Of a DNA stretch of 64,000 bases, positions 17,829-63,898 are shown piece by piece. The number at the start of each line of letters is the position of its first letter. The stretch's first letter is position 1. The notes beneath the pieces were generated by a model, which saw only the letters and a program-made list of their open reading frames with translations, was not told where the DNA came from and ran no database searches. Location of the stretch: positions 11 to 64,010 of the forward strand of contig CAZSOL010000002.1 of the NCBI GenBank assembly GCA_964608585.1. Direction: 5' to 3'. The translations under genes and the position numbers were made by a program. This stretch comes from an uncultured Candidatus Saccharibacteria bacterium (GTDB lineage: Bacteria > Patescibacteriota > Minisyncoccia > Phycocordibacterales > Zambryskibacteraceae).

Positions 17829-18392
17829 TTAGTCGAGACCACTAGCTCGTATACCATCGTTTACAAAGACCAAGAACTTCTTCCTGTCTGACCTAACCTC
17901 AAGTATCCCCTTCGGCACAGCTTCCTTAGATAAATAACCCAAGTGTGACAGCAAGCTCGCTACTGTCATAAGCTCCCAGTCTGCCAAACTAGACTCATCA
18001 AAGTCTGGCTTACTCAAAGCCTCCAAAGACTTCTTAAATTCTAGAAAGAGGTCTGTATTTTTGTCCTCGCCTCTTACTAACCGCAAAATAAGACTGGTAA
18101 TCCTGTAGATAGAGAGTAGACTCTCTCTCCTCTCTCTAAGAGTTGGTACTACTTCAATAAGCAAGGAGACAGTGGTCATGCGCCAACTCCTCTTACCTCT
18201 TACCAAAGAGACCTTAACGATGCTTAAATCTCCTAGAGCGGGAGCAGTTCTTGACCCCATCTTCCTCACTCCGCGAGCTGTGGCATAAACAAGACCCAGA
18301 TCTTCTGTAAGTATGGCCAAGGTTTTATCTGCCTCTTTGGAAGAGTGACTCCTTAGCACTATACCTATTGTGGTATAGATGTGGTGAGACAT
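17829..18392 (-). CDS. recO: DNA repair protein RecO (short form)
   Basis: ATARGVRKMGSR and ASLLSHLGY motifs align with RecO; follows ileS with overlapping stop/start. Confidence 0.65.
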   Translation of the reverse strand: MSHHIYTTIGIVLRSHSSKEADKTLAILTEDLGLVYATARGVRKMGSRTAPALGDLSIVKVSLVRGKRSWRMTTVSLLIEVVPTLRERRESLLSIYRITSLILRLVRGEDKNTDLFLEFKKSLEALSKPDFDESSLADWELMTVASLLSHLGYLSKEAVPKGILEVRSDRKKFLVFVNDGIRASGLD

Positions 18393-21300
18393 TAGTCTAT
18401 AAGTAACTTGGTATTGGTAGCCCGCTCAATAGCCTCTCTGTGCTTCTTGTACAGATCCTTGTCTTCCTCTGGAGCAAACTCCATCTGGTCTGTTGGCTTC
18501 AAGTTCTTCTCCTTCCTTGTTTCTTGGATATTGCGGATTATCTCTCGCACCTTCCCCTCTTCTATAAGCTCTGGGGTGAGAGTCGTGTCTAGATAAATCT
18601 CTTGTTCCAAATTTTCCTTTATCTCTACCTCCTTAACGTTCACCTCATCTTTTATAAGTTCCAGATAGCCAGCTTCAAGCTTCTTGCTTTTGGCTTCTAG
18701 TTTTTGGAGTGGTTGGCGAATCTTGATATTGGCTCTGGAACGAGCTTCCAAAGCAAGCGAGACGATGCCCCTCACGTTGTCCATGTCTTCTATAATATCT
18801 TTAGATTTGTTACCAAATAGAGAGAATCTCTTCTTCATCTCTGGCCAAGCTTCAAGATGCACACTCTCTACATCACTCTCAATCCTCAACTTCTGATACA
18901 ACTCCTCTGCGGCAAAAGGGGCAAATGGTGCTAGAAGTTTGGAGAGAGACTTCAATACATAATAAAGAGTCTGCTTCGCTTCCTTGTCTTCTTGCTTTAG
19001 CCTATCTCTAGAACGACGGACATACCAAGTAGAGAGATCCTCTATAAAGTCACGTACATTTCTTACCGGCTCTAAGAGCTTATAATCTTCTATATATTTA
19101 GTATTCTCCTCAATCAAATTTCTCAACTTTTCTAATATCCAGACATCAAGAATGTTCTTTGATTCTGGTTGCTTATTGTTTTCCAAACTCTTGTCTCTAT
19201 ACAAATCATAGAAGGTGTAGACGTTGTCTATAAGGTTAAAGACTCTCTTGTTTATCTCCTCCACACTCTTCTCATCAAAGTTCTTGGGCTCACCAGGTTG
19301 GTTGACCGAGTACATCCAAAGACGCAATACGTCCACACCATACTTCTCTATCGCAGAGAAGGGCTCAACAATGTTGCCTACCGACTTACTCATCTTCTTG
19401 CCCTCCTTATCCATTATGAGCCCTAGACAAATTACATTTTTGTAGGCTAGACCTTTGCCCAAAATAGCTCCAACTGCATGCATGGTGTAGAACCATCCAC
19501 GGGTTTGGTCTAGACCTTCGGAGATAAAGTCTGCTGGGTAGCTGGTGCCAGAGGCTACCGGCACAGCCCCAGAGTCGAGCCATACATCCATCACCTCCTT
19601 GGTACGCTTGTACTCCTTGCCATCCTTAACTAGCACTATGTCATCTATATATGGCTTGTGTAGATCTAGCTGATAATCCGAGTTGTGAGGCAAGGGTACA
19701 AAAGGTAGGTCTCTTACTTCAGCATTCTGAAACCTTTTAAACTCTTTGATAAATATGTGAGTCTTCGGCACATGGTACTCCTTGTGTCTTGGGTCATAGT
19801 AGCCAGACACGACAAAAGAGAGCCATGCAGGTCCGCCATGAGTTACTATCAAAATGTTTTTGCCCTTATACTTCTCCTCAATTTCGTACAAGCACTCTCC
19901 CACTCTTCTGCCCACCTCTCTTAGAGACTCACCACCACCTATAACCTCCTCATACCAATTGGGTCCAACGTTATATACGTGGTTGTGATACTCCTCCCAA
20001 TTCTTACCGTCATAACTTCCTGGATTTATCTCCCGCAATCTCTCGTCAAAAATAATGTCGGACTCATTGAAACCTATTTCTCTCGCAACTATCTGTGCAG
20101 TCTCTTTTGTACGAGCAAAGGGGGATGAAATTATTAAATCTATTTTTTTATCCTCCAGAGTTTTAGCATTCTTCTTAACTTGGGCTCTACCTTCTTCGGT
20201 TAGGTGATCATTGGCTTCGTTCTTATAACTAACAAGATCTTGCTTGTTACACTCTGAGCCACCATGACGCATCACAAAATACTTGTTGCCACTCTTCTTC
20301 GTATACTCTCTTATGGTATCAACCGAATCAATGACCAGTTTCTCCCCATCTTGAGACAGCCATACAGGCAGAGGCGTGCCCCAGTAGCGCTCACGCGATA
20401 TAGCCCAGTCCTTAACCTCTCTTAGCCACTCACCGAAGCGCCCATTCTTGATGTAACTTGGCTCCCAGTTTATCTTCTCGTTCTCCTTCATTAGCTCGCT
20501 ACGGAGCTCCGACATCCTTATATACCAAGAGTCACGTGCATAGTATATGAGACGAGTCTTACACCTCCAGCAGAAGGGATAGGAGTGAGTATAGTTCTCC
20601 TTCTTATACAAAAGTCCTCTGCTCTGGAGATCCTTCAAAACATCTACAGCCAAGCTCTCGTCTGTCACACTTCTACCTTCTAACCAATCAGTACCTTTTA
20701 TAAAAGTCCCATCTGGAGAAACCATGTGTTGCTTGGGCAAACCAATCTTACTACCCAAGTCAAAGTCCTCCTGACCATACATCACAGCAGTGTGCACAAT
20801 ACCTGTGCCATCTTCTGTCGTAACGAAGGGTGCTGTATAAACTCTGAAGGTTTTGTCTGTCGGCTTTATAAAGTTATAAAGTGGCTCATACTCCATACCC
20901 ACCATCTCACTACCTTTGTGCTCGGCGATTATTTCGTACTCTTCTGTAAGAACCGAGAGTCTCTCCTTAGCCAAGACGAGTATCTCCTCACCAACTTTAG
21001 CCTCTACATAAGTTATATCCTCTCCGACAGCCAGAGCTAGGTTGCCAGGGAGAGTCCATGGAGTTGTCGTCCACGCGACGAAGTATGCTTTGTCAAAACC
21101 AACAATCTTGAACTTCGCATAAAGCGACAAATCCTTTACATCTGTATAGCCTTGCGCCAACTCATGAGAGGAGAGCCCTGTACCACACCTTGGGCACCAA
21201 GGTACGACCTTGTAGTCCTTGTACAAGAGCTTCTTCTTATCGGCTTCGGCAACAACGTTCCAAACCGACTCTATATATGAGTTCTTGTATGTGATATATG

Positions 21301-21733
21301 GATCCTTGAGGTCTACCCAGTAACCAATGCGATCGGTGAACCTCTCCCAGATGTCCACATACTTCCACACGCTCTTCTTACACTCTTCGTTAAACTTGGC
21401 TACACCGTACTCCTCTATCTCCTTCTTGCTCTTTAGGCCCAACTGCTTCTCTACCTCAAGCTCTACAGGCAGACCGTGAGTGTCCCAACCCCCCTTCCTC
21501 GGCACCTTGTACCCACGCATCGTCTTATAACGAGGTATGGTGTCCTTGAAAGCTCTAGCCTCTAGGTGGTGTATGCCAGGCTTGCCGTTAGCTGTAGGTG
21601 GCCCCTCGTAGAAGACAAATTCGCCCTTAGGCGAAGGCTTCTCGAGTGACTTCTCGAATATCTTGTTGTCCTTCCAAAATTGTAAGACTTTCTCTTCCCT
21701 TTCCGATCTAGAAAGGCCTTTATCTTCAGCCAT
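18392..21733 (-). CDS. ileS: isoleucyl-tRNA synthetase carrying an inserted histidine-phosphatase (PGAM-like) domain
   Basis: HIGH (PGIHH), CP1 editing domain, WAISRERYWGTPLPVW, KMSKS; insertion of about 200 aa between ...REYTKKSGNKY and DLHKPYIDD containing RHGGSECN and VTHGG motifs. Confidence 0.92.
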   Translation of the reverse strand: MAEDKGLSRSEREEKVLQFWKDNKIFEKSLEKPSPKGEFVFYEGPPTANGKPGIHHLEARAFKDTIPRYKTMRGYKVPRKGGWDTHGLPVELEVEKQLGLKSKKEIEEYGVAKFNEECKKSVWKYVDIWERFTDRIGYWVDLKDPYITYKNSYIESVWNVVAEADKKKLLYKDYKVVPWCPRCGTGLSSHELAQGYTDVKDLSLYAKFKIVGFDKAYFVAWTTTPWTLPGNLALAVGEDITYVEAKVGEEILVLAKERLSVLTEEYEIIAEHKGSEMVGMEYEPLYNFIKPTDKTFRVYTAPFVTTEDGTGIVHTAVMYGQEDFDLGSKIGLPKQHMVSPDGTFIKGTDWLEGRSVTDESLAVDVLKDLQSRGLLYKKENYTHSYPFCWRCKTRLIYYARDSWYIRMSELRSELMKENEKINWEPSYIKNGRFGEWLREVKDWAISRERYWGTPLPVWLSQDGEKLVIDSVDTIREYTKKSGNKYFVMRHGGSECNKQDLVSYKNEANDHLTEEGRAQVKKNAKTLEDKKIDLIISSPFARTKETAQIVAREIGFNESDIIFDERLREINPGSYDGKNWEEYHNHVYNVGPNWYEEVIGGGESLREVGRRVGECLYEIEEKYKGKNILIVTHGGPAWLSFVVSGYYDPRHKEYHVPKTHIFIKEFKRFQNAEVRDLPFVPLPHNSDYQLDLHKPYIDDIVLVKDGKEYKRTKEVMDVWLDSGAVPVASGTSYPADFISEGLDQTRGWFYTMHAVGAILGKGLAYKNVICLGLIMDKEGKKMSKSVGNIVEPFSAIEKYGVDVLRLWMYSVNQPGEPKNFDEKSVEEINKRVFNLIDNVYTFYDLYRDKSLENNKQPESKNILDVWILEKLRNLIEENTKYIEDYKLLEPVRNVRDFIEDLSTWYVRRSRDRLKQEDKEAKQTLYYVLKSLSKLLAPFAPFAAEELYQKLRIESDVESVHLEAWPEMKKRFSLFGNKSKDIIEDMDNVRGIVSLALEARSRANIKIRQPLQKLEAKSKKLEAGYLELIKDEVNVKEVEIKENLEQEIYLDTTLTPELIEEGKVREIIRNIQETRKEKNLKPTDQMEFAPEEDKDLYKKHREAIERATNTKLLID

Positions 21734-23379: not shown

Positions 23380-23407
23380 AGAAAAAGCCCGCTCTCCAGA
23401 GCGGGCT
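23380..23407 (-). terminator. rho-independent terminator downstream of tmk
   Basis: agcccgctct/agagcgggct 10-bp stem followed by T-run on minus strand. Confidence 0.75.
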
Positions 23408-23413
23408 TTGGAC

Positions 23414-24037
23414 TTAGTGGCTTAGAAGCGCACGTAGAGCCCCATTGTAGAAGTCGTTCCAGACTTCAACTGGGGTACGAGAGGCGTCTAGCTCTCGCAC
23501 GTTGCCGATACTTGCAAACTCACGATAGCCCTGCCGAACCCGATTATGAAAACCGAGGTCCATCTCGTCGAAAAGGTTGCGGTCCTTGGCACCATGCTTT
23601 CTCTTAAGACCGACCATAGGGTCAATGTCGAGATAGATGTAAGTAGGCACCACACGGCCTCCAAACATAGACTCTCTGACCTGACGGAAGGTGGTCTTCA
23701 GTTGATGGTGTTCCTCACCAAAGATCTGGTAGGCAAAGGTAGACATATCAAACCTGTCTGAGACTACATCAACCCCAGCTTCTAGGGCCGGTACAATCTT
23801 CTGGGCAATGTGATCAGCTCTTGCCGCCCAGAAGAGATGGAAGCGGGTCTCTGCATCGAAGCTCTCCCCTTCCTTAGAAAAAAGTAGGGAGCGAATCTTC
23901 TCCGCAAAAGGGGTACCACCCGGCTCTCGGGTCACGATGAGCTTCTTCGGATCAGACATCTCCCCCAATCGCTTAATGATGGTGGACTTGCCCGAACCTT
24001 CGCCCCCCTCAACCACAATCAATCGTCCGCGCTTCAT
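23414..24037 (-). CDS. tmk: thymidylate kinase
   Basis: P-loop VVEGGEGSGKST, TREPGGT and DRF motifs; GC-rich relative to flanks. Confidence 0.9.
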   Translation of the reverse strand: MKRGRLIVVEGGEGSGKSTIIKRLGEMSDPKKLIVTREPGGTPFAEKIRSLLFSKEGESFDAETRFHLFWAARADHIAQKIVPALEAGVDVVSDRFDMSTFAYQIFGEEHHQLKTTFRQVRESMFGGRVVPTYIYLDIDPMVGLKRKHGAKDRNLFDEMDLGFHNRVRQGYREFASIGNVRELDASRTPVEVWNDFYNGALRALLSH

Positions 24038-24144
24038 AAAGAGCTCCTGTGTACAGGTTTTTGATCTTCAGTAAGCGTAAACTCTTCCGAGTTGGAGTCA
24101 ATATTGACTCAAAGAAAAAGGCGGGGTGTTAACCCGCCAGTTGT

Positions 24145-25191
24145 CTACTCATCCGAGAGAGAGAGTACAAAATCAGTCAAAGTCTCATCGCCTCGCATTC
24201 CCTCAAGAACGGCTTCCCGAGATGTAAGCTTCGAGAAGTCATGTTCACCCTTGAGGGTCTTCCGATATTGGATCCACTTGGGTCCGAAGTTCCCTCCTTG
24301 TGGTCCTAGGAATGCCCCCGTGTGATCGTGGGTCGTTGCCGGATGCTCGAAGGGCGAAGTGTGACCACTACTCTGGAGCCGATCAGCAAGCTTTAGGTCT
24401 TCGTCAAGACTCCGCTTGCCATCGTGAGTAAGATAACTTACCCGCGCGCAACGCCCAGAAGAAATTCTGGCAAGAACCCACGGGTCACCAACCTCCGAAC
24501 GGTCTTCGTCGAAGATGTAAGGAAGGTGCCACTCCATATGGTCAAGCTCAACCGGTTTGCTTGTGCTATGAGCCTTAGCCATCGCTATTGCGAGAGCTTG
24601 GATCTCTGGCTGAGCCATTGGAGATGCCCGAAGGGCGTAGAAGTTCCGCCAGTAGGTTCCTGTAACGATCACCGTGTGCCAAGCATATGGCTCCAACACT
24701 CGGTTAGCGTGTTGCTTGTGAACACCAACAGAAAGCATCTTCATCTTCAAAGCAACATCTCGATACTCTTGGCAGAGTTGTTCAATCTGTTCACAGGCAG
24801 CAATAGCCCGTAGATCCTCCTTAGCATCTTTCACGATCTGATATGTTCCACCAGCAAGGAAAAAAGCTTGGATGATTGAGACATCTCTGCCGATGAGCCA
24901 GTTATTCCTAGCAGAATCACTATCCTTACCAGAAACCTCTTCGGCCGACTGCATTCCAGCCTTGTTCCTACCGAAGGCCATCGGTACAAATGGATGTTCC
25001 AGAAGCTCCAATAGACGCTTCCAAACAGGGATTGCTCTCGAACTCGCCGAGTTACGAGAAAGGACTCGGTGTGTGTTGAACTCCGCGAGGATAAACCTCG
25101 GGAAGGTCAGCTCGAAAGTTGTCAGACGACTTCCATCGTGGGAGCTGTCTGCTACGACTTTCGCTTGGATACCTACGCGTTCAGTTTGCAC
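24145..25191 (-). CDS. ThyX-like flavin-dependent thymidylate synthase homolog, non-canonical (THR for RHR motif; extra ThyX N-terminal-like segment at C-terminus); GTG start
   Basis: FNTHRVLSRNSASSRA aligns to ThyX motif RHRx7S; ALRASPMAQPEIQALAIA aligns to conserved ThyX C-terminal helix; C-terminal CARVSY...GHTSPFEH matches ThyX N-terminal ARVS...GHxSPFEH. Confidence 0.65.
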   Translation of the reverse strand: MQTERVGIQAKVVADSSHDGSRLTTFELTFPRFILAEFNTHRVLSRNSASSRAIPVWKRLLELLEHPFVPMAFGRNKAGMQSAEEVSGKDSDSARNNWLIGRDVSIIQAFFLAGGTYQIVKDAKEDLRAIAACEQIEQLCQEYRDVALKMKMLSVGVHKQHANRVLEPYAWHTVIVTGTYWRNFYALRASPMAQPEIQALAIAMAKAHSTSKPVELDHMEWHLPYIFDEDRSEVGDPWVLARISSGRCARVSYLTHDGKRSLDEDLKLADRLQSSGHTSPFEHPATTHDHTGAFLGPQGGNFGPKWIQYRKTLKGEHDFSKLTSREAVLEGMRGDETLTDFVLSLSDE

Positions 25192-25264: not shown

Positions 25265-25310
25265 AAGAAAAAGCCCCGTGATGCATCACTGCATCACGGG
25301 GTGTTTTGTT
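25265..25310. terminator. bidirectional rho-independent terminator (12-bp perfect stem)
   Basis: ccccgtgatgca-tcac-tgcatcacgggg hairpin with A-run upstream and T-run downstream. Confidence 0.8.
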
Positions 25311-25788
25311 ATCGAGGCGGAAGCTTGAAGCCATGTGACTCTGCAGTACCATGAAGACGAAAAGAAGGCTTCTTCTCAACGAAGATCTCTCGCTCAAAGG
25401 CAAGAACCAAATCCACCACCTCATCGAAGTTGGAATACTTCACCAACTTGAAGTCTGGGTGAGTGATACCTGCGATCAAGCGACTTGGGTTGTTGTCCTT
25501 GGAGGCCAAACCAAGAACTGGCTTGCCTCGAAGTTCAATCGCAGTAGACATCTCATAACCAAGACCAAGCGACGGAAAGTCGAGAAATGCAACCATGAGG
25601 TCACACCCAGCAACGTGGTTATGGATATCCAGCTTGTACACATCTTGATCGGTCCCTGGGTGAGGATACAGAAACTTGAGAACTTCAAAGTGCTTATCTA
25701 GCAGTTCTCTCGTCTCCTTCACTCTCTCTACATACCATTCAGAAGCACCTTGCAGGGCACAACCAACGTAGAGCTTACGCTTGGGCAC
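25309..25788 (-). CDS. nucleoside 2-deoxyribosyltransferase-like / DNPH1(Rcl)-like protein (GTG start, AAGGAGA SD)
   Basis: KLYVGCAL start of Rossmann-like fold and D..GLGYEMSTAIELRGKPVLGL matching the D.GT.fE.GyA...GKPV signature of the deoxyribosyltransferase-like superfamily. Confidence 0.5.
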   Translation of the reverse strand: MPKRKLYVGCALQGASEWYVERVKETRELLDKHFEVLKFLYPHPGTDQDVYKLDIHNHVAGCDLMVAFLDFPSLGLGYEMSTAIELRGKPVLGLASKDNNPSRLIAGITHPDFKLVKYSNFDEVVDLVLAFEREIFVEKKPSFRLHGTAESHGFKLPPR

Positions 25789-54155: not shown

Positions 54156-54387
54156 GCTTTGTTCTAGATCTAACCAACTCCAAAATCTGATCTTCTTTGA
54201 GTTTTAGCTCGTTTCTTTTTGCTGGAGAGGTCTTTATCTTCAGACTATTGCCTTGTATTGATACATCCTCAGCAAAAACATCAAAACCAGCAACCTCCTT
54301 AACGCTATTACAAACACTTTCTCTGATAGCCCGGTCCCCACCCAAAGACCTCCTTAACCTCTCTAGAAGCCCGTTTAAAGCATCCAT
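54130..54387 (-). CDS. small protein downstream of dnaN (DUF721-like)
   Basis: 85-aa ORF directly following dnaN. Confidence 0.3.
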   Translation of the reverse strand: MDALNGLLERLRRSLGGDRAIRESVCNSVKEVAGFDVFAEDVSIQGNSLKIKTSPAKRNELKLKEDQILELVRSRTKLNLTKLVY

Positions 54388-55487
54388 TACCGGTTCATGG
54401 GCATTAGTAGATATCTAAAACTTTTGTCCCCTACACCCTCTACCATTATCGGCTTGCCCTCCCCAGCAAAATGAAGTTGTAAGCTATCCACCGAAATGGA
54501 AGCAAAACCGTCTGTAAGGTAACGATGATTAACACTTATTGATATATCCTTACCTTCAAGAGAAGCTTCTATATTGTCTTTGTTCTCACCAACATCTTGA
54601 TTTTTAGACTCTATCTCAAATTTTTTATTTTTTGGAGAAAGAGTCAGTCTAAGTTGGTTAAAATTGTCTGAGAATATGAGTGAGGTCTTCAAAGAAGAGA
54701 GGAGATCTTGTTTCAACACAATAGCACTGGAAGCGATGTCTTTAGGAATAATTTGTTTGTAGTCTGGAAACACACCATCTATTGTGCGAGAGGTTAAGTA
54801 TATAGACCCGCCTCTCATAGCCATTTGATTATCTTCAATGGTTATAGACACATCTTCTTCTATACCATCAAAGATTCTTATTATTTCCAGAACATTCTTT
54901 TGTGGTAAGAGTATTTGGGTAAAGTTTGGTATCTTTTTTACCTTTATTTTTTTCTCAGCGAGCCTGAAGGAGTCTGTAGCAACAAAAACAAGACTTTCCC
55001 CTTCATGGATTAAACAAACAGATGAGAGTTCTGGTTTAATACTCCCAACCGCAGCTGCATAAAACACGGATTTGAGACCTAAAACAAGATCCTTAGACGG
55101 TATAGAGAAGTTACTCCCACCACCCATCTCAGGGATAACAGGAAACTCCTCTGGAGGTAGGGTTTTTAGGGTTGAGTGTGTTGTTGGGGTTTCTATAACA
55201 AGAGTTTGGTTGTCTTGGGTTAGGGTTACATTATTTCCTTTTGATAAAGAGTTTATGAGAGAAGAGAAGATGTGTGCCGGAACAACAACATGACCTTCTT
55301 TTAGAACTTTAACGGGTAGATGGATTGATATTCCTAAATCTAAGTTTGTTGCCCTAATAGTTAAGATTCCTCCAAGAGCCTCTAAAGAGATCCCTGCTAA
55401 AACTGGTAGGGTTACATTTTTACCAGAGACCTTCTCGGCTCTACTCACAGCCTCCACAAGTTTTTCTCTAGTTGATTCTATTTTCAT
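54387..55487 (-). CDS. dnaN: DNA polymerase III beta sliding clamp
   Basis: Three-domain clamp pattern; downstream of dnaA. Confidence 0.9.
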   Translation of the reverse strand: MKIESTREKLVEAVSRAEKVSGKNVTLPVLAGISLEALGGILTIRATNLDLGISIHLPVKVLKEGHVVVPAHIFSSLINSLSKGNNVTLTQDNQTLVIETPTTHSTLKTLPPEEFPVIPEMGGGSNFSIPSKDLVLGLKSVFYAAAVGSIKPELSSVCLIHEGESLVFVATDSFRLAEKKIKVKKIPNFTQILLPQKNVLEIIRIFDGIEEDVSITIEDNQMAMRGGSIYLTSRTIDGVFPDYKQIIPKDIASSAIVLKQDLLSSLKTSLIFSDNFNQLRLTLSPKNKKFEIESKNQDVGENKDNIEASLEGKDISISVNHRYLTDGFASISVDSLQLHFAGEGKPIMVEGVGDKSFRYLLMPMNR

Positions 55488-55691
55488 ATTTAAATACTTG
55501 TTAATACTATTAGTCTTGTGGATATGTGGAAAAACTTTTTAAGATAGATAGAGATTAGTGTTTTTATTTTTTTAAAAAAGTGGAGTGGTGGATAACTTCT
55601 AAAAACCGATATTAACTTTTTAACCCCCCTACTTGTTTCTTGGTTTTTTAAAGACATTTTTGTTTGGTTTTGAACATTTTGTACACAACTA
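55488..55691. promoter_or_regulatory. candidate oriC segment (DnaA boxes + AT-rich unwinding element) in dnaN-dnaA spacer
   Basis: TGTGGATAT (55516-55524), TGTGGAAAA (55525-55533), GGTGGATAA (55587-55595) matching TGTGNATAA; tttttatttttttaaaaaag AT tract. Confidence 0.6.
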
Positions 55692-57035
55692 TTAAACAGA
55701 TAATAAGTTTCTTATTTGAGAAAGTTCTTGTTCTAGTGTTTGGTCGTTCTTTAGATCTGTCTTTATTTTCTCACAAGAGTGGATGACTGTGGTATGGTCT
55801 CTACCTCCAAGTTTATCCCCTATTGAAGGGTATGAGATGTTGAAATCCTCTCTCAAAATGTACATTATCATTTGGCGAGGTTTTATTATCTCCTTCCGGC
55901 GAGTCTTCTCGTATATACTCTCCTCCTCTATAGAATAAAAGTCTGAGATTATCTTAACAATGTCCTTTACCGCCACAGCTTTCTTGGGTTTCTGACTGTT
56001 CTTTATCAGGCTCTTTACATCAGCCACCGTCACCTCCCTACCTTTGAGTTGGGAATGAATTATTAGGGTGTTTAGGGCTCCCTCAAGATCCCTAATGTTG
56101 CCTGCCACAGCCTTTGATAAGTAATCTATTACCTCTGGGGTTAGAGACATGCCTTGTAGTCGTGCCTTAGCGCTCAATATAGCTATCCTAGACTCGTGGT
56201 CCGGCTGGGGTATGTCTATTATCATTCCTGCAGACATCCTGCTTTTTAGGCGGTCTTCAAGCCCCTGTATGAAGTGTGGATGTTTGTCGGAGGAGAAGAT
56301 AACCTGTTTGTTGTTGTCATAAAGGGTGTTAAAGAGATGGAAGAGCTCTTCTTGGAATTTCTGCTTCTCGGAGAAAAACTGGATATCGTCCATGATAAGT
56401 ACATCGTATTTTCTGTATTTCTCCTTAAATACAGCCATTTTTTGGGTTTGGAGGGCATTCATACAGTCTTGGCCAAACTTTTCAGATGTCATATAGAAGA
56501 CCCTCTTACCTGGAGAAACCGTCTTTATATGGTTGCCTATAGCCTGTATAAGGTGGGTTTTGCCGTGGCCGGTTGAGCCGTAGATAAAGAGAGGGTTATA
56601 CATAAGCCCTGGGGATTTGATAACCGCCTGAGCGGCTGCATGGGCCAACTCATTAAAAGGGCCAATAATAAAGGTTTCAAAGGTGTAGCGAGGGTTTAGG
56701 TTGTCTTCTTTATTGACCAAGGACTCTGGCAAAGGCAGGCTGGCCGTACCACCCATGGTTATAGGCTTATCCTCCCTTCTTTTAGGCTCATCACGGTTTA
56801 TAACGTATTCTACAGCGTGTATGGTGTGGTCTCGGTCCCTAAGGAGTTTTAGGACGGTAGCATGGTATCTGGATTGGAACATATCTCTAGCGAAGGCATT
56901 TGGCACAGACAGAATAATGGTGTTTTCGTCTCTTTTGACGATATGAGTGTCTTTAAACCAAGTGCTAAAGGCAGGCTTAGAAATGGTCAATTCTATCTCA
57001 GCTAGTATTGATTCCCAGAGTTGTTTTGGATCCAT
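55692..57035 (-). CDS. dnaA: chromosomal replication initiator DnaA (start at MDPKQLW; ORF track extends to TTG at 57077)
   Basis: AAA+ GSTGHGKTHL, Walker B, C-terminal DnaA-box binding domain. Confidence 0.93.
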   Translation of the reverse strand: MDPKQLWESILAEIELTISKPAFSTWFKDTHIVKRDENTIILSVPNAFARDMFQSRYHATVLKLLRDRDHTIHAVEYVINRDEPKRREDKPITMGGTASLPLPESLVNKEDNLNPRYTFETFIIGPFNELAHAAAQAVIKSPGLMYNPLFIYGSTGHGKTHLIQAIGNHIKTVSPGKRVFYMTSEKFGQDCMNALQTQKMAVFKEKYRKYDVLIMDDIQFFSEKQKFQEELFHLFNTLYDNNKQVIFSSDKHPHFIQGLEDRLKSRMSAGMIIDIPQPDHESRIAILSAKARLQGMSLTPEVIDYLSKAVAGNIRDLEGALNTLIIHSQLKGREVTVADVKSLIKNSQKPKKAVAVKDIVKIISDFYSIEEESIYEKTRRKEIIKPRQMIMYILREDFNISYPSIGDKLGGRDHTTVIHSCEKIKTDLKNDQTLEQELSQIRNLLSV

Positions 57036-57087
57036 AAAGAGTGTCCGAACGATATGTAGTATATATGTTCGGACCAAGACTCCAAAC

Positions 57088-57275: not shown

Positions 57276-57589
57276 TGCTTTCTAGTCAGAACCGAATACC
57301 TAGGAAAGATTTTGGGGACATACTGTCTTCTCGTCAGACCTCAAGTACTAAAAACTTTTTACTAAGATTTGCTCAAAACAAAGATAAGAGGTTTGCTGTA
57401 TCTGTATCCAAAAAAGTCTCAAAGAGTGCTGTTGCAAGAAACACATTAAGAAGAAGAACCTACGCTGTCCTGAGAGATCTTCTGCCAAAATTAGGAAATG
57501 GTTTATATTTAATAAGTGCTAAGCCGAGTGCTAAGGACCTTCGTGGCGATAGATTAAAAAATGAAATAACTGAGTTATTATTATCCTGA
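57275..57589 (+). CDS. rnpA: ribonuclease P protein component
   Basis: Basic protein overlapping rpmH stop (TAATG); RnpA pattern. Confidence 0.8.
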   Translation: MLSSQNRIPRKDFGDILSSRQTSSTKNFLLRFAQNKDKRFAVSVSKKVSKSAVARNTLRRRTYAVLRDLLPKLGNGLYLISAKPSAKDLRGDRLKNEITELLLS

Positions 57590-58311
57590 TGTCTACCTTA
57601 TACAACAAACTGCTTGTCGAGCCGATATACAACACCCTCGTCACCTTGTTTGATCTGTTCCCTCTTGCCGGTGCAGGCCTCTCCATAATCCTCATTACAA
57701 TTATTGTTAGACTGGCTCTATACCCACTCTCTAAGAAGGCAGTTAAGGCGCAGATAGAGATGCAGAGCTTAACTCCAGCGCTACAAGAGATAAAGACGAA
57801 GTATAAAGACAACAAAGAGGAGCAGGCTCGTCGCACTCTAGCCCTCTACAAAGATCGAGGTATTAACCCCTTTTCTGGTATCTTGGTTTTGCTTATACAG
57901 CTTCCTGTTATTTTTGCTCTATATCACATTTTCGTCTCCACCGGCTTCCCCGAGATAAACACCGAGCTCCTCTACTCCTTTGTGGTTCCTCCAGTTGAGG
58001 TTAACCCAATGTTTTTTGGAGCTGATCTGACTCAGAAGAGCGCTATCCTCGCTCTTCTTGCTGCTATTACCACTTACTACCAGATCAAACTAGCTTCCCC
58101 CATAAACAAGAAGTCAGCAGGAGCTCCATCTTTCGGAGATGATCTGGCTCAAAGTATGCAAACACAGATGAAGTACTTCTTCCCTGTGATGGTCTTCTTC
58201 ATCGCTTATACAATCTCAGGTGTCATTGCTCTCTATTGGCTCACCACAAACCTCTTTACGATTGGTCAGGAGATCTTTGTACGAAGAAAGTTGTTAGCTA
58301 ATCAAGCTTAA
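57589..58311 (+). CDS. yidC: membrane protein insertase YidC (short form)
   Basis: YidC/Oxa1 5-TM core. Confidence 0.85.
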   Translation: MSTLYNKLLVEPIYNTLVTLFDLFPLAGAGLSIILITIIVRLALYPLSKKAVKAQIEMQSLTPALQEIKTKYKDNKEEQARRTLALYKDRGINPFSGILVLLIQLPVIFALYHIFVSTGFPEINTELLYSFVVPPVEVNPMFFGADLTQKSAILALLAAITTYYQIKLASPINKKSAGAPSFGDDLAQSMQTQMKYFFPVMVFFIAYTISGVIALYWLTTNLFTIGQEIFVRRKLLANQA

Positions 58312-59530
58312 GTGCCCAAAGAGTCAGGTCCTTCTTGTTGGTGAAGATCAAGTACTCTTCCTCCGAGTCTAGCTTTAGGTTTGTTGCATCAACCTCTTGC
58401 CCAAACTCAGTCTTTGGGTCAAGGATATTCTCAACAGTGTTGGTGTCGACGTTGAACCTTCTGATACTATCTGTGTAATCTGTCACACCTTGGTACCAAA
58501 GATCTGGTACATCAAGACCCAAGCCTCCACTCGGCACTCCACAAATGACAATGCTTGATGATTTCTCACTCCAAACACACTTCTCTGGTAGAGTGGCTGG
58601 TAGGATGTTGGTAACAGCCTCTGTAGTTAAGTTTTTAGCGGTTAACACAACTTGTCCGCCTAGTGTATTGCTATAGAGTAGTCTTCTACCGTCAGGGTTT
58701 GATAAGGCCGTCAGTCCCATCAAAGGACCAAGAATCTTGGTTAAATTACCATTATTTAGGTTTAAGTTATAAACATACCCTTCGGCTTTGGAGCTGGGCT
58801 TAGTCCTTAGGATGACGGAAGTGTTTGTGAGGGGTTGTATAAGCCAGCTTCTGAAGCTAGAAGCAAGAACGTTTCTCGCACCACCTCCATTAAAGTTTGA
58901 GGTGTATACCCCTCCAACATCCTCTAGTGTATAAACAAGGTTCCCGTTTGGTAGAAGAGCTACCTCCCCCACTTCGCCTTCAAGCAAGGTGCTACTCATG
59001 GTGTACAAAGCCTCGGTAGAGGTGCCTTTAGGAGCAGTGAGGGATATTGAGGTGTTTGTTGTTAGGTCGCTGTTGTTTATAACCGTTCTCTCAAGGAAAC
59101 CCGCACCATCCTCTCTCCACAAAGCTGTGTAGATCTGGGGCCTGGTGGTGTTTATGATCCTCACCTTCTCTCCGGTTGCCAAATTGCTTTCAAACACGTG
59201 GCCAGTAGCTCTCTCCACAAAGCGCACCATAGGAGTGTCATCTCTCTCTATAATAATCGACCCAGATACAGGAGTATCAGAAAGCCTAAAGAAGTTTGAT
59301 ACAGGTACACCAGTACTCCCTGTAGGTTCGTCACCACCAGTTGTTGAACCATCTCCGGTGTCTGTACCCGTATCACCACCTGTGGAGACATCCTCTGGTG
59401 CGCTACCAAAAGGAAGTCCGGGGATTACGGGTAGGCCGTTTGGCGTCTTACCACCCAAAAGAAGATAGAGTATTCCGCTTCCAAGAGCGATGGTGAGGAT
59501 GAGTATTAAGATGGCAGTACGTTTCTTCAT
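58298..59530 (-). CDS. hypothetical secreted/anchored protein with Gly/Thr/Asp-rich linker and beta-propeller-like domain
   Basis: N-terminal TM, low-complexity GDTGTDTGDGSTTGGDEPTG linker, repeated beta-rich segments. Confidence 0.5.
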   Translation of the reverse strand: MKKRTAILILILTIALGSGILYLLLGGKTPNGLPVIPGLPFGSAPEDVSTGGDTGTDTGDGSTTGGDEPTGSTGVPVSNFFRLSDTPVSGSIIIERDDTPMVRFVERATGHVFESNLATGEKVRIINTTRPQIYTALWREDGAGFLERTVINNSDLTTNTSISLTAPKGTSTEALYTMSSTLLEGEVGEVALLPNGNLVYTLEDVGGVYTSNFNGGGARNVLASSFRSWLIQPLTNTSVILRTKPSSKAEGYVYNLNLNNGNLTKILGPLMGLTALSNPDGRRLLYSNTLGGQVVLTAKNLTTEAVTNILPATLPEKCVWSEKSSSIVICGVPSGGLGLDVPDLWYQGVTDYTDSIRRFNVDTNTVENILDPKTEFGQEVDATNLKLDSEEEYLIFTNKKDLTLWALKLD

Positions 59531-59533
59531 GTG

Positions 59534-60397
59534 TTAACGATTTATGAAAGCACTTTCTCTTAATGTGGGGAAGCACACTATTTTCCCTTGAAGTTCTGGA
59601 CTTCCTCCAACTAGTTGTTTTATAGCGTCTCTTCTACTATTTGGACACGCGTTGTATTGTTGGAAGTCTGGTCCAAATGCCACATGAACGTTTCTAATAA
59701 AAGTGCTAACAATAATATTGCTTGTATTGGCAACAGATACTTCTAAACAATTTCCAGAATATTCCCCCGGTTTGTAACAGGCGAGATCTCCAGCTTGCTC
59801 GGCTGTTTGAGGGTAAGCTTTTATTACTTGCCACACAAGAAGACGTTCTCTTGTCCTCTCCTCTCCTCTTTCTGTATACGTTTCTTGATATCTTAACCCC
59901 TTCAAATCTTCTAATCCTGAGAGAAGGTTACTGTTTATATAACAAGGATTATTAATACATGCACCCGGGGTTACTGTTATTTCTGCCGAATTCAAAACAA
60001 CACAGTTGTTGGTACAGCCAGTTTCTTCAGCACCTTCATTCCCGAAACCTCCATTATTAAGGTCATCTGGGTTCAGTGCTTCTCCACCTGCATTTTGTGG
60101 AGTAGGAGCTAGGGTTATTCTTACCAAGTTAGGGCTTATCGTAAAGAGAATTGCATAAGAGCCTATCGCCAGAAGGAGTCCAAACAAAGCATTTCTTATT
60201 ATTTTCTTTGCGTCCTCTTTGCCCCCCCAAGCATCTGTTGTGAGATAGATTATTCCTCCATACATTACCCTTAGAACAGCTAGAGCGCCAGCTACAGCAA
60301 TAATTAGTGGCACAAGGTTGCCGAAGAACGTTGCTGGGTCTGTGCCAGAGTTTCCCCCCACGAGTATTGGTAATGGAGCTAAAGGGCTATAATCCAT
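59534..60397 (-). CDS. T4SS-associated membrane protein with VirB2/TrbC pilin-like N-terminus and Cys-rich C-terminal ectodomain
   Basis: Two hydrophobic helices in first 95 aa in TrbC-like arrangement; C-terminal domain with 10 Cys. Confidence 0.35.
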   Translation of the reverse strand: MDYSPLAPLPILVGGNSGTDPATFFGNLVPLIIAVAGALAVLRVMYGGIIYLTTDAWGGKEDAKKIIRNALFGLLLAIGSYAILFTISPNLVRITLAPTPQNAGGEALNPDDLNNGGFGNEGAEETGCTNNCVVLNSAEITVTPGACINNPCYINSNLLSGLEDLKGLRYQETYTERGEERTRERLLVWQVIKAYPQTAEQAGDLACYKPGEYSGNCLEVSVANTSNIIVSTFIRNVHVAFGPDFQQYNACPNSRRDAIKQLVGGSPELQGKIVCFPTLRESAFINR

Positions 60398-61139
60398 TGT
60401 TTTGATTAAACATTATATTAAAGTTTTTAGGTTGAGGTTGTACCAAGACTCCTTTATTAGTAATAGAAAGTTGTATCTTCGCTTGACCAGAGGAGTCGTC
60501 TGAAATTCTATAGGTAACTCTATTTCCAGTTCTTGCGTCTCCTGTGTTGGTTGACCAAAGATAACTTATTGCTGGTGCGTTTTTCGTAGTGGTTCTATGA
60601 AATAGTGGTATCGCCGAGAAGCTCACTTCACTATTAATTAGTGAAAAGTTATTTAAAACAGCCTTATTTAACATCAAGCCATATAGTGGACTGTCTTCTA
60701 CAACTAAGATTTCAGGATCTGATGGAGATAGGGTAACTCTCTCTGTAGCCAAAATATCTCCTTCTTCCCCATCTCTGACATCCACCCTTACTTCTATAGG
60801 TAAAGATAGTATGGTGTCACTAAAAGTTATACTGTTCTTACCAACCCCAGAGAGGCTACCCAATACAGTTCCATCCTTACTCCACCTGTAATACAAAGAT
60901 GCAGAACTTTTACCTGGGATAATAGCTATGGCAGACACAGCCACTTGTCCTTCGTTTGGCCAAAGAGCCAGACCTTGATAAAAAGGAGGCGTATAAGACT
61001 GACCTTCCCACAATATGTCCACTGTTTGGGCTTCTGCATTAGGAGGCATTAGTACAAAACAAGTGCTGAATAGTAAAGAAAGAAGAGTTATACGCATAAC
61101 AATATTATAACCCAACTGTTTCTTTGATTTTTGTATCAA
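60387..61139 (-). CDS. hypothetical secreted protein in T4SS-like cluster (start probably MRITLL)
   Basis: Signal peptide ...FVLMPPNAEAQ; beta-rich. Confidence 0.5.
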   Translation of the reverse strand: MIQKSKKQLGYNIVMRITLLSLLFSTCFVLMPPNAEAQTVDILWEGQSYTPPFYQGLALWPNEGQVAVSAIAIIPGKSSASLYYRWSKDGTVLGSLSGVGKNSITFSDTILSLPIEVRVDVRDGEEGDILATERVTLSPSDPEILVVEDSPLYGLMLNKAVLNNFSLINSEVSFSAIPLFHRTTTKNAPAISYLWSTNTGDARTGNRVTYRISDDSSGQAKIQLSITNKGVLVQPQPKNFNIMFNQNNGL

Positions 61140-61422
61140 GGATCATAAATACAACTATTCCAGTCCACGCAGGTAGACTAGATAAAACTGGTATCATCTC
61201 AGCCACAAATCCAGTTGACCCAACCACGAGTCTTTTTGGGCTGACAAAGCTGATCCCCTTGAGTTTGAACCAAAACCAGAAGTGGAAGCCAGCAAAGAAG
61301 GCTACAATAAAGTTTAGTCCAGGGACTAGAGATAACACGTCATAAAACAAGGCAACCGCGATCATAAGATACTTTGTTGGGCCAGATAGTTTTGATTCAG
61401 GCTTTGATACAGGGGTATCCAT
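61105..61422 (-). CDS. small 2-TM membrane protein (VirB3-like candidate)
   Basis: 105 aa, two TM helices, adjacent to VirB4. Confidence 0.35.
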   Translation of the reverse strand: MDTPVSKPESKLSGPTKYLMIAVALFYDVLSLVPGLNFIVAFFAGFHFWFWFKLKGISFVSPKRLVVGSTGFVAEMIPVLSSLPAWTGIVVFMILDTKIKETVGL

Positions 61423-61424
61423 TT

Positions 61425-63257
61425 TTATCTTGTGACCTCTCGGGTTTCTTCTAACTCTCTTTTTGCCTTCTTTTGAGCCAAGACTTGTGATGGGTCTGAG
61501 GTGATGATCTGGTCCTCGGTGTAAGAGGCAATGATCTTGATAGCTACGTGCTTAAGCCCAGCGAAGAAGATCCCCTCCCCCACATCCGACTCAAGGAGCA
61601 AGAACTTCTCTTCATCTGTCAGGTTGAAGGTTTTCTGCAGGTTATCTATGTTTGTTGGAGACTGCTTAAGTAAGACTTGGATAGAAGAGTTAGTGATGAT
61701 CGGTAGACCGTATGGAGACTTGAGGAAGTCGCCCACGTCTTGAGTGATGGTAGCCACACCCAAGTAATACTTCCTCCCTCTCTTAACCAACCCTGTTAGG
61801 AAGGAAGCCGTGTCGTCTGACTTCATCATCCACCACGCCTCGTCTATGACGAGTAACCTCTTCTTCAGCTCTCTCCTTACCGCGTTCCAGATAAAGTGAG
61901 TGACGATGTACATCGCCACAGGCTTGAGCTCATCCTCCATGTCACGGAGAGAGAAGACCACCAACTTCTTGTTGATGTCTACATTTGTTGGTCTGTTGAT
62001 GAAGCCTGCCCAAGTACCCTTGGTGTACTTAGTAAGCCTTTGAGCCAAGGACTCGCCTCCCTCAAGACCTGAGAGCACTAGCTCAAAGTCGGACATTAGA
62101 GGAGGCTCAACGTTTCTAAAGTCGGAGTCAGCTGTGATGTCTTTAAGTGCATATGTCTCGGTGATAGCTCGGTCTATAAGCGCGTCCTCTTCTGCGGTGA
62201 GTCCTCCCATCATAATACGGAAGAGCCCTACAAGGTTGATGATGTTACTCCTCAAGATATTGGCAGCTGACTCATCAGGACCTGGGACCGGTAGGTCAAA
62301 GGGGTTTATATGGTGCTCGGAGTTGAGAGAGACGTTGAAGTATCTACCCCCTACTGCCTCAGCCATGTACTCGTACTCTCGCTCTGGGTCTATGATGATG
62401 ACCTCAGTATCAAACATTAGGGTTCTTAGGATTTCAAGCTTGGTGCAGTAAGACTTACCAGCACCTGACTTGGCGAAGATGACGGAGTTGTAGTTCTCAA
62501 GTGAGAAGCGGTCAAAGAGTACAAGGGATGAGTTGTGTCTGTTGATGCCGTAGAGTATCCCTTTGTCGGAGGTGAGGTCAAATGAGGTGAATGGGAAGAG
62601 GGATGAGAGTGGTGAGGAGTTAAGCTTGGAGTGTACACCCAAGAGATCGTCGCCCAAGGGTAGAGTAGACTTGTAACCCTGCTCTTGCTGGAAGAGTGCT
62701 GGCTTAACATACACGAGCTTAGCCTCAAGGATGGACTTGATCTCATTTTCTATCTTGTCCAGCTCAAGGTTAGAGTCGGCGTAGATAGTGATGTAGAGGC
62801 CAACATCAAAGAGCTTCTCTTGAGCTTGTTGTAGCTGGTCGCGGAGGTTCTCAAGATCTTGATAAGCCACATCAAGCACTGGGTCTCTGACTAAACCCTT
62901 CTCCTCTCTGGTGTGTATCTGGCTCTCCACCTCAGCCACCTTCTTTTGGAATTGCCTTAGTATTTTGGATGTCTCTATCGGATGAACAAAGATAGACACA
63001 TCAAAAACTTTATCCATATTAAGTATCGGAGAGAACCACTCTTCCGAAAGGAAGCGCGGATAAGAAATGATGAAGAAGCTACGCAAGATTTTTTCTCCGA
63101 GGTCCAACTCTCTGGGGGTAATCTTTAGCGCCGAAGGAGCTATAAGGTCCTTGAGCTCCAGCACTCCTGCTTCAAAGACTTCTTGAGGCAGGATAGACTG
63201 TATCCTTTGCTCAACCTTCTCCTCTTTTTTACCGATGATTTTGTCGAAGAAGCTCAT
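61425..63257 (-). CDS. virB4: VirB4/TrbE-family T4SS ATPase (ATPase portion)
   Basis: Walker A FAKSGAGKSY, Walker B LLVIDEAWWMM, DUF87/AAA-like domain. Confidence 0.8.
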   Translation of the reverse strand: MSFFDKIIGKKEEKVEQRIQSILPQEVFEAGVLELKDLIAPSALKITPRELDLGEKILRSFFIISYPRFLSEEWFSPILNMDKVFDVSIFVHPIETSKILRQFQKKVAEVESQIHTREEKGLVRDPVLDVAYQDLENLRDQLQQAQEKLFDVGLYITIYADSNLELDKIENEIKSILEAKLVYVKPALFQQEQGYKSTLPLGDDLLGVHSKLNSSPLSSLFPFTSFDLTSDKGILYGINRHNSSLVLFDRFSLENYNSVIFAKSGAGKSYCTKLEILRTLMFDTEVIIIDPEREYEYMAEAVGGRYFNVSLNSEHHINPFDLPVPGPDESAANILRSNIINLVGLFRIMMGGLTAEEDALIDRAITETYALKDITADSDFRNVEPPLMSDFELVLSGLEGGESLAQRLTKYTKGTWAGFINRPTNVDINKKLVVFSLRDMEDELKPVAMYIVTHFIWNAVRRELKKRLLVIDEAWWMMKSDDTASFLTGLVKRGRKYYLGVATITQDVGDFLKSPYGLPIITNSSIQVLLKQSPTNIDNLQKTFNLTDEEKFLLLESDVGEGIFFAGLKHVAIKIIASYTEDQIITSDPSQVLAQKKAKRELEETREVTR

Positions 63258-63259
63258 AG

Positions 63260-63898
63260 TTATCTTTTTATAATAGCTTTTTCTGTCTCCCCAGGGTTGA
63301 AGGCCTTATAGAAGAGCTCTGTCACCTCGTCTGTTCCGAGCCTAGCTATACGTATACCAGTCCTTATAAGTCCTTGCTCTACCACAGCCAAGCGTTCCTC
63401 CAGTTGTGTTCTAGCCTCATCGAAGTCAGCTTCCTTAGCACCGGCTCTGTCTTTGGGTTTTCTGCTAACAAGAGAGGAGAGCCCACTAGACTTGTTGGTG
63501 CTTATGATAGAGGGGTTGTATGGTACGACAACGAAGAAGCTCTTTGTCATGATGTTGGTAGACTCGGTGAAGGACCTGACGAACTCTATATATTCGTGAG
63601 TCTGGAGCTTCATTAGGCTGTTGGTTTGGAGTTTGGCCTGCTCTTCAAGTAAGGCAAGGTAAGGTCTGATGTCCAACTTTCTTGATTGCACTACTATCTG
63701 AACAGAGAAGTCTAAAGAGTTTAAGAAGTCTTGAAATTGCAGAAGGATGGCATTCTTCTCATCTACGGACTTAAGGGAGAAGTTGAGTGAGGAGGCAAGG
63801 AGTATGCCACGCATGCCACCATCCTTCTCGATGATGATGCCGTCTCGCACTTCTTTGATAGGGACAAACGCTTGAGTAGGTAAAGAACCACTAGCCAT
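63260..63898 (-). CDS. VirB4 N-terminal domain encoded as separate ORF
   Basis: PIKEVRDGIIIEKDGGMRGIL... resembles the N-terminal region of Gram-positive-type VirB4 proteins; ends 2 nt before ATPase ORF in another frame. Confidence 0.55.
   Translation of the reverse strand: MASGSLPTQAFVPIKEVRDGIIIEKDGGMRGILLASSLNFSLKSVDEKNAILLQFQDFLNSLDFSVQIVVQSRKLDIRPYLALLEEQAKLQTNSLMKLQTHEYIEFVRSFTESTNIMTKSFFVVVPYNPSIISTNKSSGLSSLVSRKPKDRAGAKEADFDEARTQLEERLAVVEQGLIRTGIRIARLGTDEVTELFYKAFNPGETEKAIIKR

Follow-up and report, generated by a model that had tools for sequence, protein, structure and literature searches.

ThyX enzymes, the flavin-dependent thymidylate synthases (FDTS; Pfam PF02511), are defined by an RHRx7S motif together with fixed arginines that bind deoxyuridine monophosphate (dUMP), and are pursued as antibacterial targets. 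In the canonical chain a module of two helices, alpha1 and alpha2, bears the residues in contact with flavin adenine dinucleotide (FAD) and folate (S30, H53, T55 and E58 in the Thermotoga maritima enzyme) and precedes the strand beta3. The canonical enzyme is a homotetramer with FAD, and three of the subunits build each active site. The present analysis concerns a ThyX-like gene in a 64,000-nucleotide stretch of contig CAZSOL010000002.1 from an uncultured Candidatus Saccharibacteria bacterium (the whole stretch is hereafter referred to as the window), the product of which carries the alpha1-alpha2 module past the core, whereas canonical enzymes carry it before beta3.

The conserved dUMP hydrogen-bonding residues of ThyX are R78, R80, S88 and R90 (PMC3498832). 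In the Mycobacterium tuberculosis enzyme Y108 serves as a 'lid' over uracil C5 and flavin N5, and R199, which corresponds to R174 of T. maritima, is the uracil/dUMP-binding Arg (PMC6514825). Residue numbers given here are those of the 348-amino acid (aa) window protein, while Tm and Mtb denote the ThyX of T. maritima and M. tuberculosis, respectively; the TM0449 reference sequence is 100% identical to 1KQ4, and the chain numbering used below equals the native numbering plus 12.

With the canonical enzymes (TM0449 1O26/1KQ4, 2AF6, 4FZB and 3AH5) the window protein shares the His of RHR, the SxR element, the equivalents of R147 and R174, and the ARVS(Y/F) and GHxxPFEH elements; in the pathway it is likewise predicted to follow dUMP supply and to precede thymidylate kinase. 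Apart from the position of the module, the protein and its relatives differ from them in having THR (THx in many members from the ultra-small bacteria of the candidate phyla radiation, CPR) in place of RHR, Ala in place of Tyr after SxR, and an additional conserved C-terminal motif with the invariant R310. The classical thymidylate synthase, ThyA (PF00303), has the same predicted net product, thymidine monophosphate (dTMP), but is unrelated in fold and mechanism and without similarity to the window protein.

Order of the ThyX elements

The ThyX-like gene is an open reading frame (ORF) with a GTG start, a GAGG 6 nt upstream of it and a length in agreement with that of the homologues; an identical protein (P0001) is also encoded on a 119.5-kb public contig. 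The product matched the Pfam Thy1 family in two stretches with 52 bits against a gathering cutoff of 24.8 (E 1e-13), the better stretch placing residues 25-209 on positions 60-186 of the 191-position profile, and the protein has the ThyX fold. In PHROGs, the family phrog_85 'thymidylate synthase' matched residues 9-332 with an E-value of 3.5e-65. The features of the protein are the following (coordinates in the window, strand in brackets).

24145..25191 (-): complete ORF of 348 aa, permuted ThyX-like protein and putative flavin-dependent thymidylate synthase
24544..25167 (-): N-terminal beta-hairpin and ThyX core, residues 9-216, equivalent to about Tm 56-202 (beta3 to helix alpha8)
25033..25077 (-): ThyX-motif region, residues 39-53, NTHRVLSRNSASSRA, with T40 for Tm R78, H41 = H79, R42 = R80, S50 = S88, R52 = R90 and A53 for Tyr91
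24727..24855 (-): helical insertion, residues 113-155, a gap in the alignment and helices H115-149 in the AlphaFold2 (AF2) model
24700..24720 (-): HKQHANR, residues 158-164, with R164 = Tm R147 (dUMP phosphate) and the clade-invariant K159
24604..24645 (-): NFYALRASPMAQPE, residues 183-196, with N183 = Tm N169, R188 = Tm R174 and the AQxE helix
24325..24474 (-): relocated module, residues 240-289, equivalent to Tm 18-65 (helices alpha1-alpha2), with R250, S252 = Tm S30, Y253, H277 = Tm H53, S279 = T55, E282 = E58 and H283 = H59
24259..24294 (-): clade-specific C-terminal motif, residues 300-311, GNFGPKWIQYRK
24148..24240 (-): C-terminal tail, residues 318-348, specific to the CPR subclade by alignment comparison

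Searched alone against the PDB, the protein matched T. maritima ThyX in three pieces with swapped order, residues 25-52 aligning to chain positions 75-102 (the RHR...SxR region), 135-211 to 129-209 and 242-291 to 32-80. The same swap was recovered with a family profile built from 42 diverse relatives (A2), for which hmmsearch aligned profile positions 90-173 to chain positions 129-214 (independent E-value 1.1e-4) and 200-250 to 32-80 (4.6e-4), with a whole-sequence E-value of 1.6e-12. Profile comparison by hhalign placed residues 240-289 on Tm 18-65 (P 1.1e-6) and residues 18-216 on Tm 56-202 (P 1.2e-4). The two matches jointly span Tm 18-202 and overlap solely in Tm 56-65 (PFEHIVFTFH), as would be expected where a permutation has its breakpoint. 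The elements thus run THR...SxRA...R188...Y253...H277 in the window protein, against Y...H...RHR...SxRY...R in the canonical chain. PolB (4P5A), the UMP/dUMP (uridine and deoxyuridine monophosphate) methylase of polyoxin biosynthesis, differs in this respect, since its order is canonical and A2 positions 22-173 align collinearly to its chain positions 71-228.

The AF2 model is confident over the entire chain, and its secondary structure together with the profile alignments was used to map the elements onto T. maritima ThyX. Strands E9-18 and E21-31 form a beta-hairpin at the start of the chain, and E21-31 corresponds to Tm beta3; in the model, strand E9-18 may be either a retained beta2 or a new strand. 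The core comprises H32-38, the motif loop 39-55, the long helix H88-112, H159-164, E171-178, H181-188 and H195-210. Past the core lie two short strands, then H237-253 and H262-274, which correspond to Tm alpha1 and alpha2, then H279-282 (SPFEH), and a 65-residue extension closes the chain. Structure comparison gave the following values.

4FZB, PBCV-1 ThyX: 12.3
2AF6, M. tuberculosis ThyX: 11.6
3AH5, Helicobacter pylori ThyX: 11.4
4P5A, PolB UMP/dUMP methylase: 10.6
5CHP, T. maritima ThyX: 10.0

The analysis establishes the fold, the swap, the conservation pattern and the genomic associations described below; the window protein is best read as a ThyX-superfamily protein with permuted element order. 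A preliminary description, made from the nucleotide sequence alone, had proposed a non-canonical ThyX homologue of 348 aa with Thr in place of the first Arg of RHR, an ARVS...GHxSPFEH element at the C-terminus, Thy1 boundaries falling in two parts and a permuted structure; all of these are borne out by the sequence, profile and fold evidence. It had also supposed that a degenerate copy of the GHxSPFEH element persists at the N-terminus, and this part is not supported. When residues 1-60 were compared with residues 212-330 by hhalign in two family alignments, the probability was 0.1-0.2% (P 0.4-0.5), and the AF2 model has a beta-hairpin at the N-terminus; an internal duplication was rejected for lack of signal, and the element has moved rather than been duplicated. 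The rearrangement most likely came about as a strict circular permutation, through a tandem duplication and subsequent truncation with a breakpoint near Tm 56-65. In the window protein a short beta-hairpin leads straight into beta3, the alpha1-alpha2 module stands after the last core helix, and a clade-specific GN..W.Q.RK motif ends this series.

Conservation and distribution of the permuted clade

A census of 270 relatives, in which residues were mapped onto Tm positions through the PDB, profile and hhalign alignments, gave the following pattern.

Tm R78 (Mtb R95), T40: Thr in 260/263 aligned family members
Tm H79, H41: invariant
Tm R80, R42: Arg in 126/145 diverse representatives and in 60/118 of the CPR set (Thr 30, Cys 25)
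Tm S88, S50: invariant
Tm R90, R52: invariant
Tm Y91 (Mtb Y108), A53: Ala invariant
Tm R147, R164: invariant
Tm N169, N183: invariant
Tm R174 (Mtb R199), R188: invariant
Tm S30, S252: invariant
Tm H53, H277: invariant
Tm T55, S279: conserved
Tm E58, E282: conserved, Gln in 54/120 CPR sequences

The signature RHRx7-8S is therefore absent from the window protein, which reads T40-H41-R42-x7-S50, and E86 is replaced by an invariant Ser throughout the clade. Set against the known dUMP-binding residues (PMC3498832), the clade always lacks one (R78) and often a second (R80). The catalytic/uracil Arg (R188), the second phosphate Arg (R164) and the folate/flavin-stacking His (H277) are all retained. 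About 18 positions, including all the remaining catalytic equivalents, are invariant even among representatives down to 36% identity with the query. G79-M80, K159, R250 and R310 are invariant in the clade without a canonical counterpart, R310 being part of the C-terminal motif (residues 300-311: G300, N301, W306, Q308 and R310), which has no equivalent in canonical ThyX.

The genes of several relatives are interrupted by inteins, one of which carries an HNH endonuclease. In P0169, P0184, P0200 and P0209 the insertion point is precisely the junction of THRxx with S(R/K)NSASSRA; in P0157 it lies inside the GHMSPFEH motif, directly after GH. Positions within the THR-SxNSASSR and GHxSPFEH motifs are typical of catalytically indispensable sites. 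Fusions to pathway enzymes were considered for the longer relatives and rejected, as the extra parts are inteins and DUF3310, the latter at the N-terminus of P0223.

The protein homologue search returned at least 7,989 significant clusters at 90% identity, and nearly all of the best 120 are 336-364 aa long, with named sources in the Parcubacteria/Paceibacterota. An exhaustive HMMER scan of 1.84 billion representatives at 50% identity yielded 5,179 matches at E<1e-3 and 2,489 at E<1e-30; the matches listed are mostly 270-330 aa long and collinear with the query. By tblastn, 1,034 records among 50,697 phage genomes were matched, 939 of them with a single uninterrupted match to 80% or more of the query, and the carriers include N4-like Schitoviridae ('N4 gp30-like'), Pakpunavirus, ICP1, rV5-like, phiCbK and Campylobacter phages. 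With one genome taken per species, relatives are encoded at 381 loci, the best 80 of which belong to CPR lineages (Paceibacteria, Saccharibacteria, Kaiserbacteria and Zambryskiibacteria) and to Solirubrobacterales chromosomes. In a six-way alignment that included the window protein, gp49 of Achromobacter phage JWAlpha, PJG4_130 of Pseudomonas phage JG004, and proteins of Solirubrobacterales and Nanosynbacter, the architecture and the motifs are alike throughout.

The phage proteins of phrog_85 (N4 gp30-like, JWAlpha gp49, JG004 PJG4_130, ICP1 and rV5-like) are true members of the family; at 31-40% identity, they share the permuted architecture and the clade motifs along about 90% of the chain. 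They differ in being mostly 270-310 aa long, in lacking the CPR tail (318-348) and, for the most part, the insertion 113-155, and in usually retaining Arg at the third RHR position; the insertion is present in CPR-type and some non-CPR members and missing from most short phage-type members. The phage genes are annotated as 'thymidylate synthase', 'FAD-dependent thymidylate synthase' or 'hypothetical protein', and in the clade as a whole many members are labelled 'hypothetical protein' and others 'thymidylate synthase/ThyX' by annotation pipelines. Separately, the ThyX-like gene of one metagenome-assembled genome (L077, 8499-8501) has a single in-frame TGA at a conserved Trp (W181 of the window protein), which suggests a UGA-recoding lineage or a pseudogene.

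The permuted architecture is thus the standard of a huge clade and not the peculiarity of a single protein, as which it had first been described. The possibility left in that description, that close homologues might be standard ThyX with a common extension, is answered in two parts: the architecture is indeed common, but the homologues are all permuted and none is of the standard kind.

Genomic context

The window gene has a 159-aa gene on one side and thymidylate kinase (tmk) on the other, within a secE-nusG-rplK ... argS-ileS housekeeping stretch. Its surroundings comprise:

23414..24037 (-): thymidylate kinase (tmk), Pfam PF02223, E 2.5e-33
24120..24138 (-): terminator-like GC hairpin and T-run directly past the stop codon of the ThyX-like gene
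25274..25301 (-): terminator-like hairpin (stem of 12 bp) in the gap that separates the ThyX-like gene from the 159-aa gene upstream

The tmk product is predicted to consume dTMP, the predicted product of the ThyX-like enzyme. Strong terminator-like hairpins follow each of the three genes on the (-) strand, that past tmk lying at 23384-23409, so that the bracketed ThyX-like gene looks monocistronic and the three genes are probably separate transcription units. The 159-aa ORF (25309-25788, (-)) adjoins the gene upstream and occupies the slot of dut/dcd in relatives. It had no Pfam or NCBIfam match and 18 homologues among 5.8 billion proteins, one of them with PF05014 (nucleoside 2-deoxyribosyltransferase), and is possibly a deoxynucleoside-salvage enzyme. 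The family search found no thyA, folA, dut, dcd or canonical thyX encoded in the window; a Mur-ligase ORF considered as FolC was rejected, being MurE.

In a relative with a 53%-identical protein (L001), the syntenic slot reads tmk / thyX-like / dut / dcd. Neighbours were counted with iterated profiles in 27 distinct CPR loci within a radius of 1.5 kb; 20 of them have tmk, 17 have a Dcd-family gene and three have dut, and representative neighbours exceed the NCBIfam cutoffs for dCTP (deoxycytidine triphosphate) deaminase and dUTPase. The genes of the CPR neighbourhood make up the whole route from dCTP through dUTP/dUMP and dTMP to dTDP. On a 3.5-kb contig of a Nanosynbacter sp. (L080, JARKOR010000180.1, 429-3522) the order is HAD hydrolase / thyX-like / thyA / folA, and this thyA (Pfam E 5.5e-113) is the sole full-length classical thymidylate synthase next door among 82 loci.

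In phage JG004 the ThyX-like gene stands beside those of ribonucleotide reductase (RNR) beta/alpha, and in the N4-like JWAlpha it is preceded at 1.5 kb by a thioredoxin-like ORF and at about 4 kb by a dCTP deaminase gene. The flanks of the 54 non-CPR loci, mostly Solirubrobacterales, contained no tmk, dcd or dut. At these loci the gene is adjoined by conserved chromosomal genes for a glyoxalase-like protein and a membrane transporter and by ORFs that, judged by sequence, resemble nuoN, rpoA and rpsD; such neighbours indicate a resident housekeeping gene and not a prophage. One Solirubrobacterales metagenome-assembled genome carries, some 1 kb downstream of its ThyX-like gene, a 352-aa ORF (L076, 10004-11059) whose similarity to Pfam Thymidylat_synt is confined to the middle of the profile (positions 105-231 of 266, E 4.7e-16) and which may encode a divergent or truncated ThyA-like protein.

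Further features were observed elsewhere in the window. The isoleucyl-tRNA synthetase (1,113 aa, 18392-21733, (-)) is interrupted at aa 486-639 by a histidine-phosphatase domain (His_Phos_1, Pfam E 8.7e-34), and the same architecture occurs in L001, a related CPR genome (3175-6615). At 54387-57077 (-), dnaN and dnaA adjoin the stretch of lowest GC (0.376, minimum at 54-56 kb), with yidC at 57589-58311; the origin of the chromosome probably lies here. A TraG/VirD4-like P-loop ATPase (61425-63257) stands between four ORFs of 212-410 aa at 58298-63898 (-), none of which had a Pfam match; the region may be what is left of a conjugative or type IV secretion system.

Function and significance of the clade

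The permuted clade is probably an ordinary flavin-dependent dUMP-to-dTMP synthase. The enzyme, presumably a homotetramer, would turn dUMP into dTMP with the aid of reduced FAD, NAD(P)H (reduced nicotinamide adenine dinucleotide, or its phosphate) and methylene-tetrahydrofolate, and the dTMP would pass to the neighbouring thymidylate kinase for phosphorylation. For the positive charge and the 'lid' that disappear with R78->T40 and Y91->A53, clade-invariant residues elsewhere probably substitute, K159 and R310 being the candidates. The proximity of the gene to tmk, dcd and dut in CPR genomes, and to the genes of RNR or dCTP deaminase in phages, agrees with a role in dTMP supply, and in Solirubrobacterales it is chromosomal, widespread and situated at housekeeping loci. 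Several observations weigh against such a function. The score for the ThyX equivalog TIGR02170 of NCBIfam is 60.3 bits, under the cutoff of 87.9; the canonical dUMP binder R78 and the lid Y91 are replaced by the invariant T40 and A53, and the third residue of RHR is Arg in just 60 of the 118 CPR sequences. The terminators flanking the window gene make it a neighbour of tmk for which co-transcription is not demonstrable, and the thyA next to the Nanosynbacter gene would mean redundancy if both make dTMP; the two genes are either redundant, as are those of mycobacteria, or their proximity hints at a different role for the ThyX-like one. The oligomeric state and the cofactor are those that we infer for a ThyX-like protein, and the searchable literature yielded no biochemically or genetically characterised member of the clade.

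These observations raise the question of an enzyme of the same fold with an altered substrate or product, such as a PolB-like UMP/dUMP methylase, an enzyme that takes deoxyuridine, dUDP or dUTP in place of dUMP or one that leaves a hydroxymethyl or other adduct at C5, and the preliminary description had likewise suggested that a dUMP-modifying enzyme could stand in place of a plain thymidylate synthase. The invariance of R78->T, Y91->A and E86->S, together with the variable R80 equivalent in CPR, at positions that contact dUMP or shield C5/N5, would suit altered chemistry, as would the clade-specific invariant C-terminal motif and the genuine thyA-folA pair adjoining the Nanosynbacter gene. 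We nevertheless regard it as unlikely, and that earlier suggestion as unsupported. The residues for uracil activation and folate stacking are kept, the neighbouring genes in CPR and in phages are those of dTMP supply, and the gene is a single-copy chromosomal one in two cellular lineages. PolB acts in an antibiotic pathway, whereas the window protein is encoded among housekeeping and dTTP-pathway genes. The gene is also present in N4-like phages, for which we know of no report of modified thymidine, and the known thymidine hypermodification begins from ThyA-family hydroxymethylases, not from ThyX (PMC8989533). More specifically, an active site rebuilt after the loss of R78 and the Tyr lid (in CPR also of R80), with the new C-terminal Arg motif, could change the nucleotide specificity, the reductant or the one-carbon outcome, so that the substrate might be another deoxyuridine phosphorylation state or the product a non-methyl C5 adduct; we consider this improbable.

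The missing RHR signature and Tyr lid and the sub-cutoff equivalog score would equally suit a catalytically dead relic with a structural, regulatory or nucleotide-binding role, but such a role has very little probability in view of the roughly 18 invariant positions, the inteins that target the clade motifs and the retention of the clade in thousands of reduced genomes and phages. The chance that the permuted order is an artefact of mis-assembly, of a frameshift fusion of two fragments or of a fortuitous C-terminal resemblance is practically nil. The single-sequence matches to the PDB are weak in themselves (E-values of 1.3 and 2.3 per stretch), but both segments are significant at the profile level, the AF2 model is confident across the chain, and the collinear architecture recurs in the homologue clusters of independent assemblies, in isolate phages and in complete chromosomes; with thousands of collinear homologues, a mis-assembled or chimeric gene is effectively refuted. 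Returning to dTMP synthesis, there is somewhat less than an even chance of a milder departure, likelier than a changed outcome, in which the same product is made by an undescribed permuted lineage that may provide many CPR bacteria with their main thymidylate synthase, is widespread in Solirubrobacterales, occurs in more than 1,000 phages and is mis-scored as 'hypothetical' by equivalog models.

Full-text literature searches found no statement that the clade is sequence-permuted or lacks the RHR and Tyr signature, the matches to 'permuted' concerning phage genomes or combinatorics. In 2004 Liu and Yang (J Bacteriol 186:6316) reportedly described a ThyX of Trichodesmium that contains an intein and shows 'distinctive ThyX motifs'; their report may concern the permuted clade, since intein-bearing members exist. 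The family is abundantly sequenced and usually already named thymidylate synthase, while its permutation and lost signature are apparently undescribed.

A clade of thousands departs from the ThyX motif and chain order with the fold kept. Annotation by motif or equivalog misses a part of it, which is left as 'hypothetical protein', and CPR genomes can consequently seem to be without thymidylate synthesis. The auxiliary 'thyX' genes of N4-like, Pakpunavirus, ICP1 and rV5-like phages encode this variant and not the characterised enzymes. If the clade is simply a dTMP synthase, the finding would be a useful structural and evolutionary footnote and not new biology; the clade is in any case a natural experiment on which residues of ThyX are truly essential.

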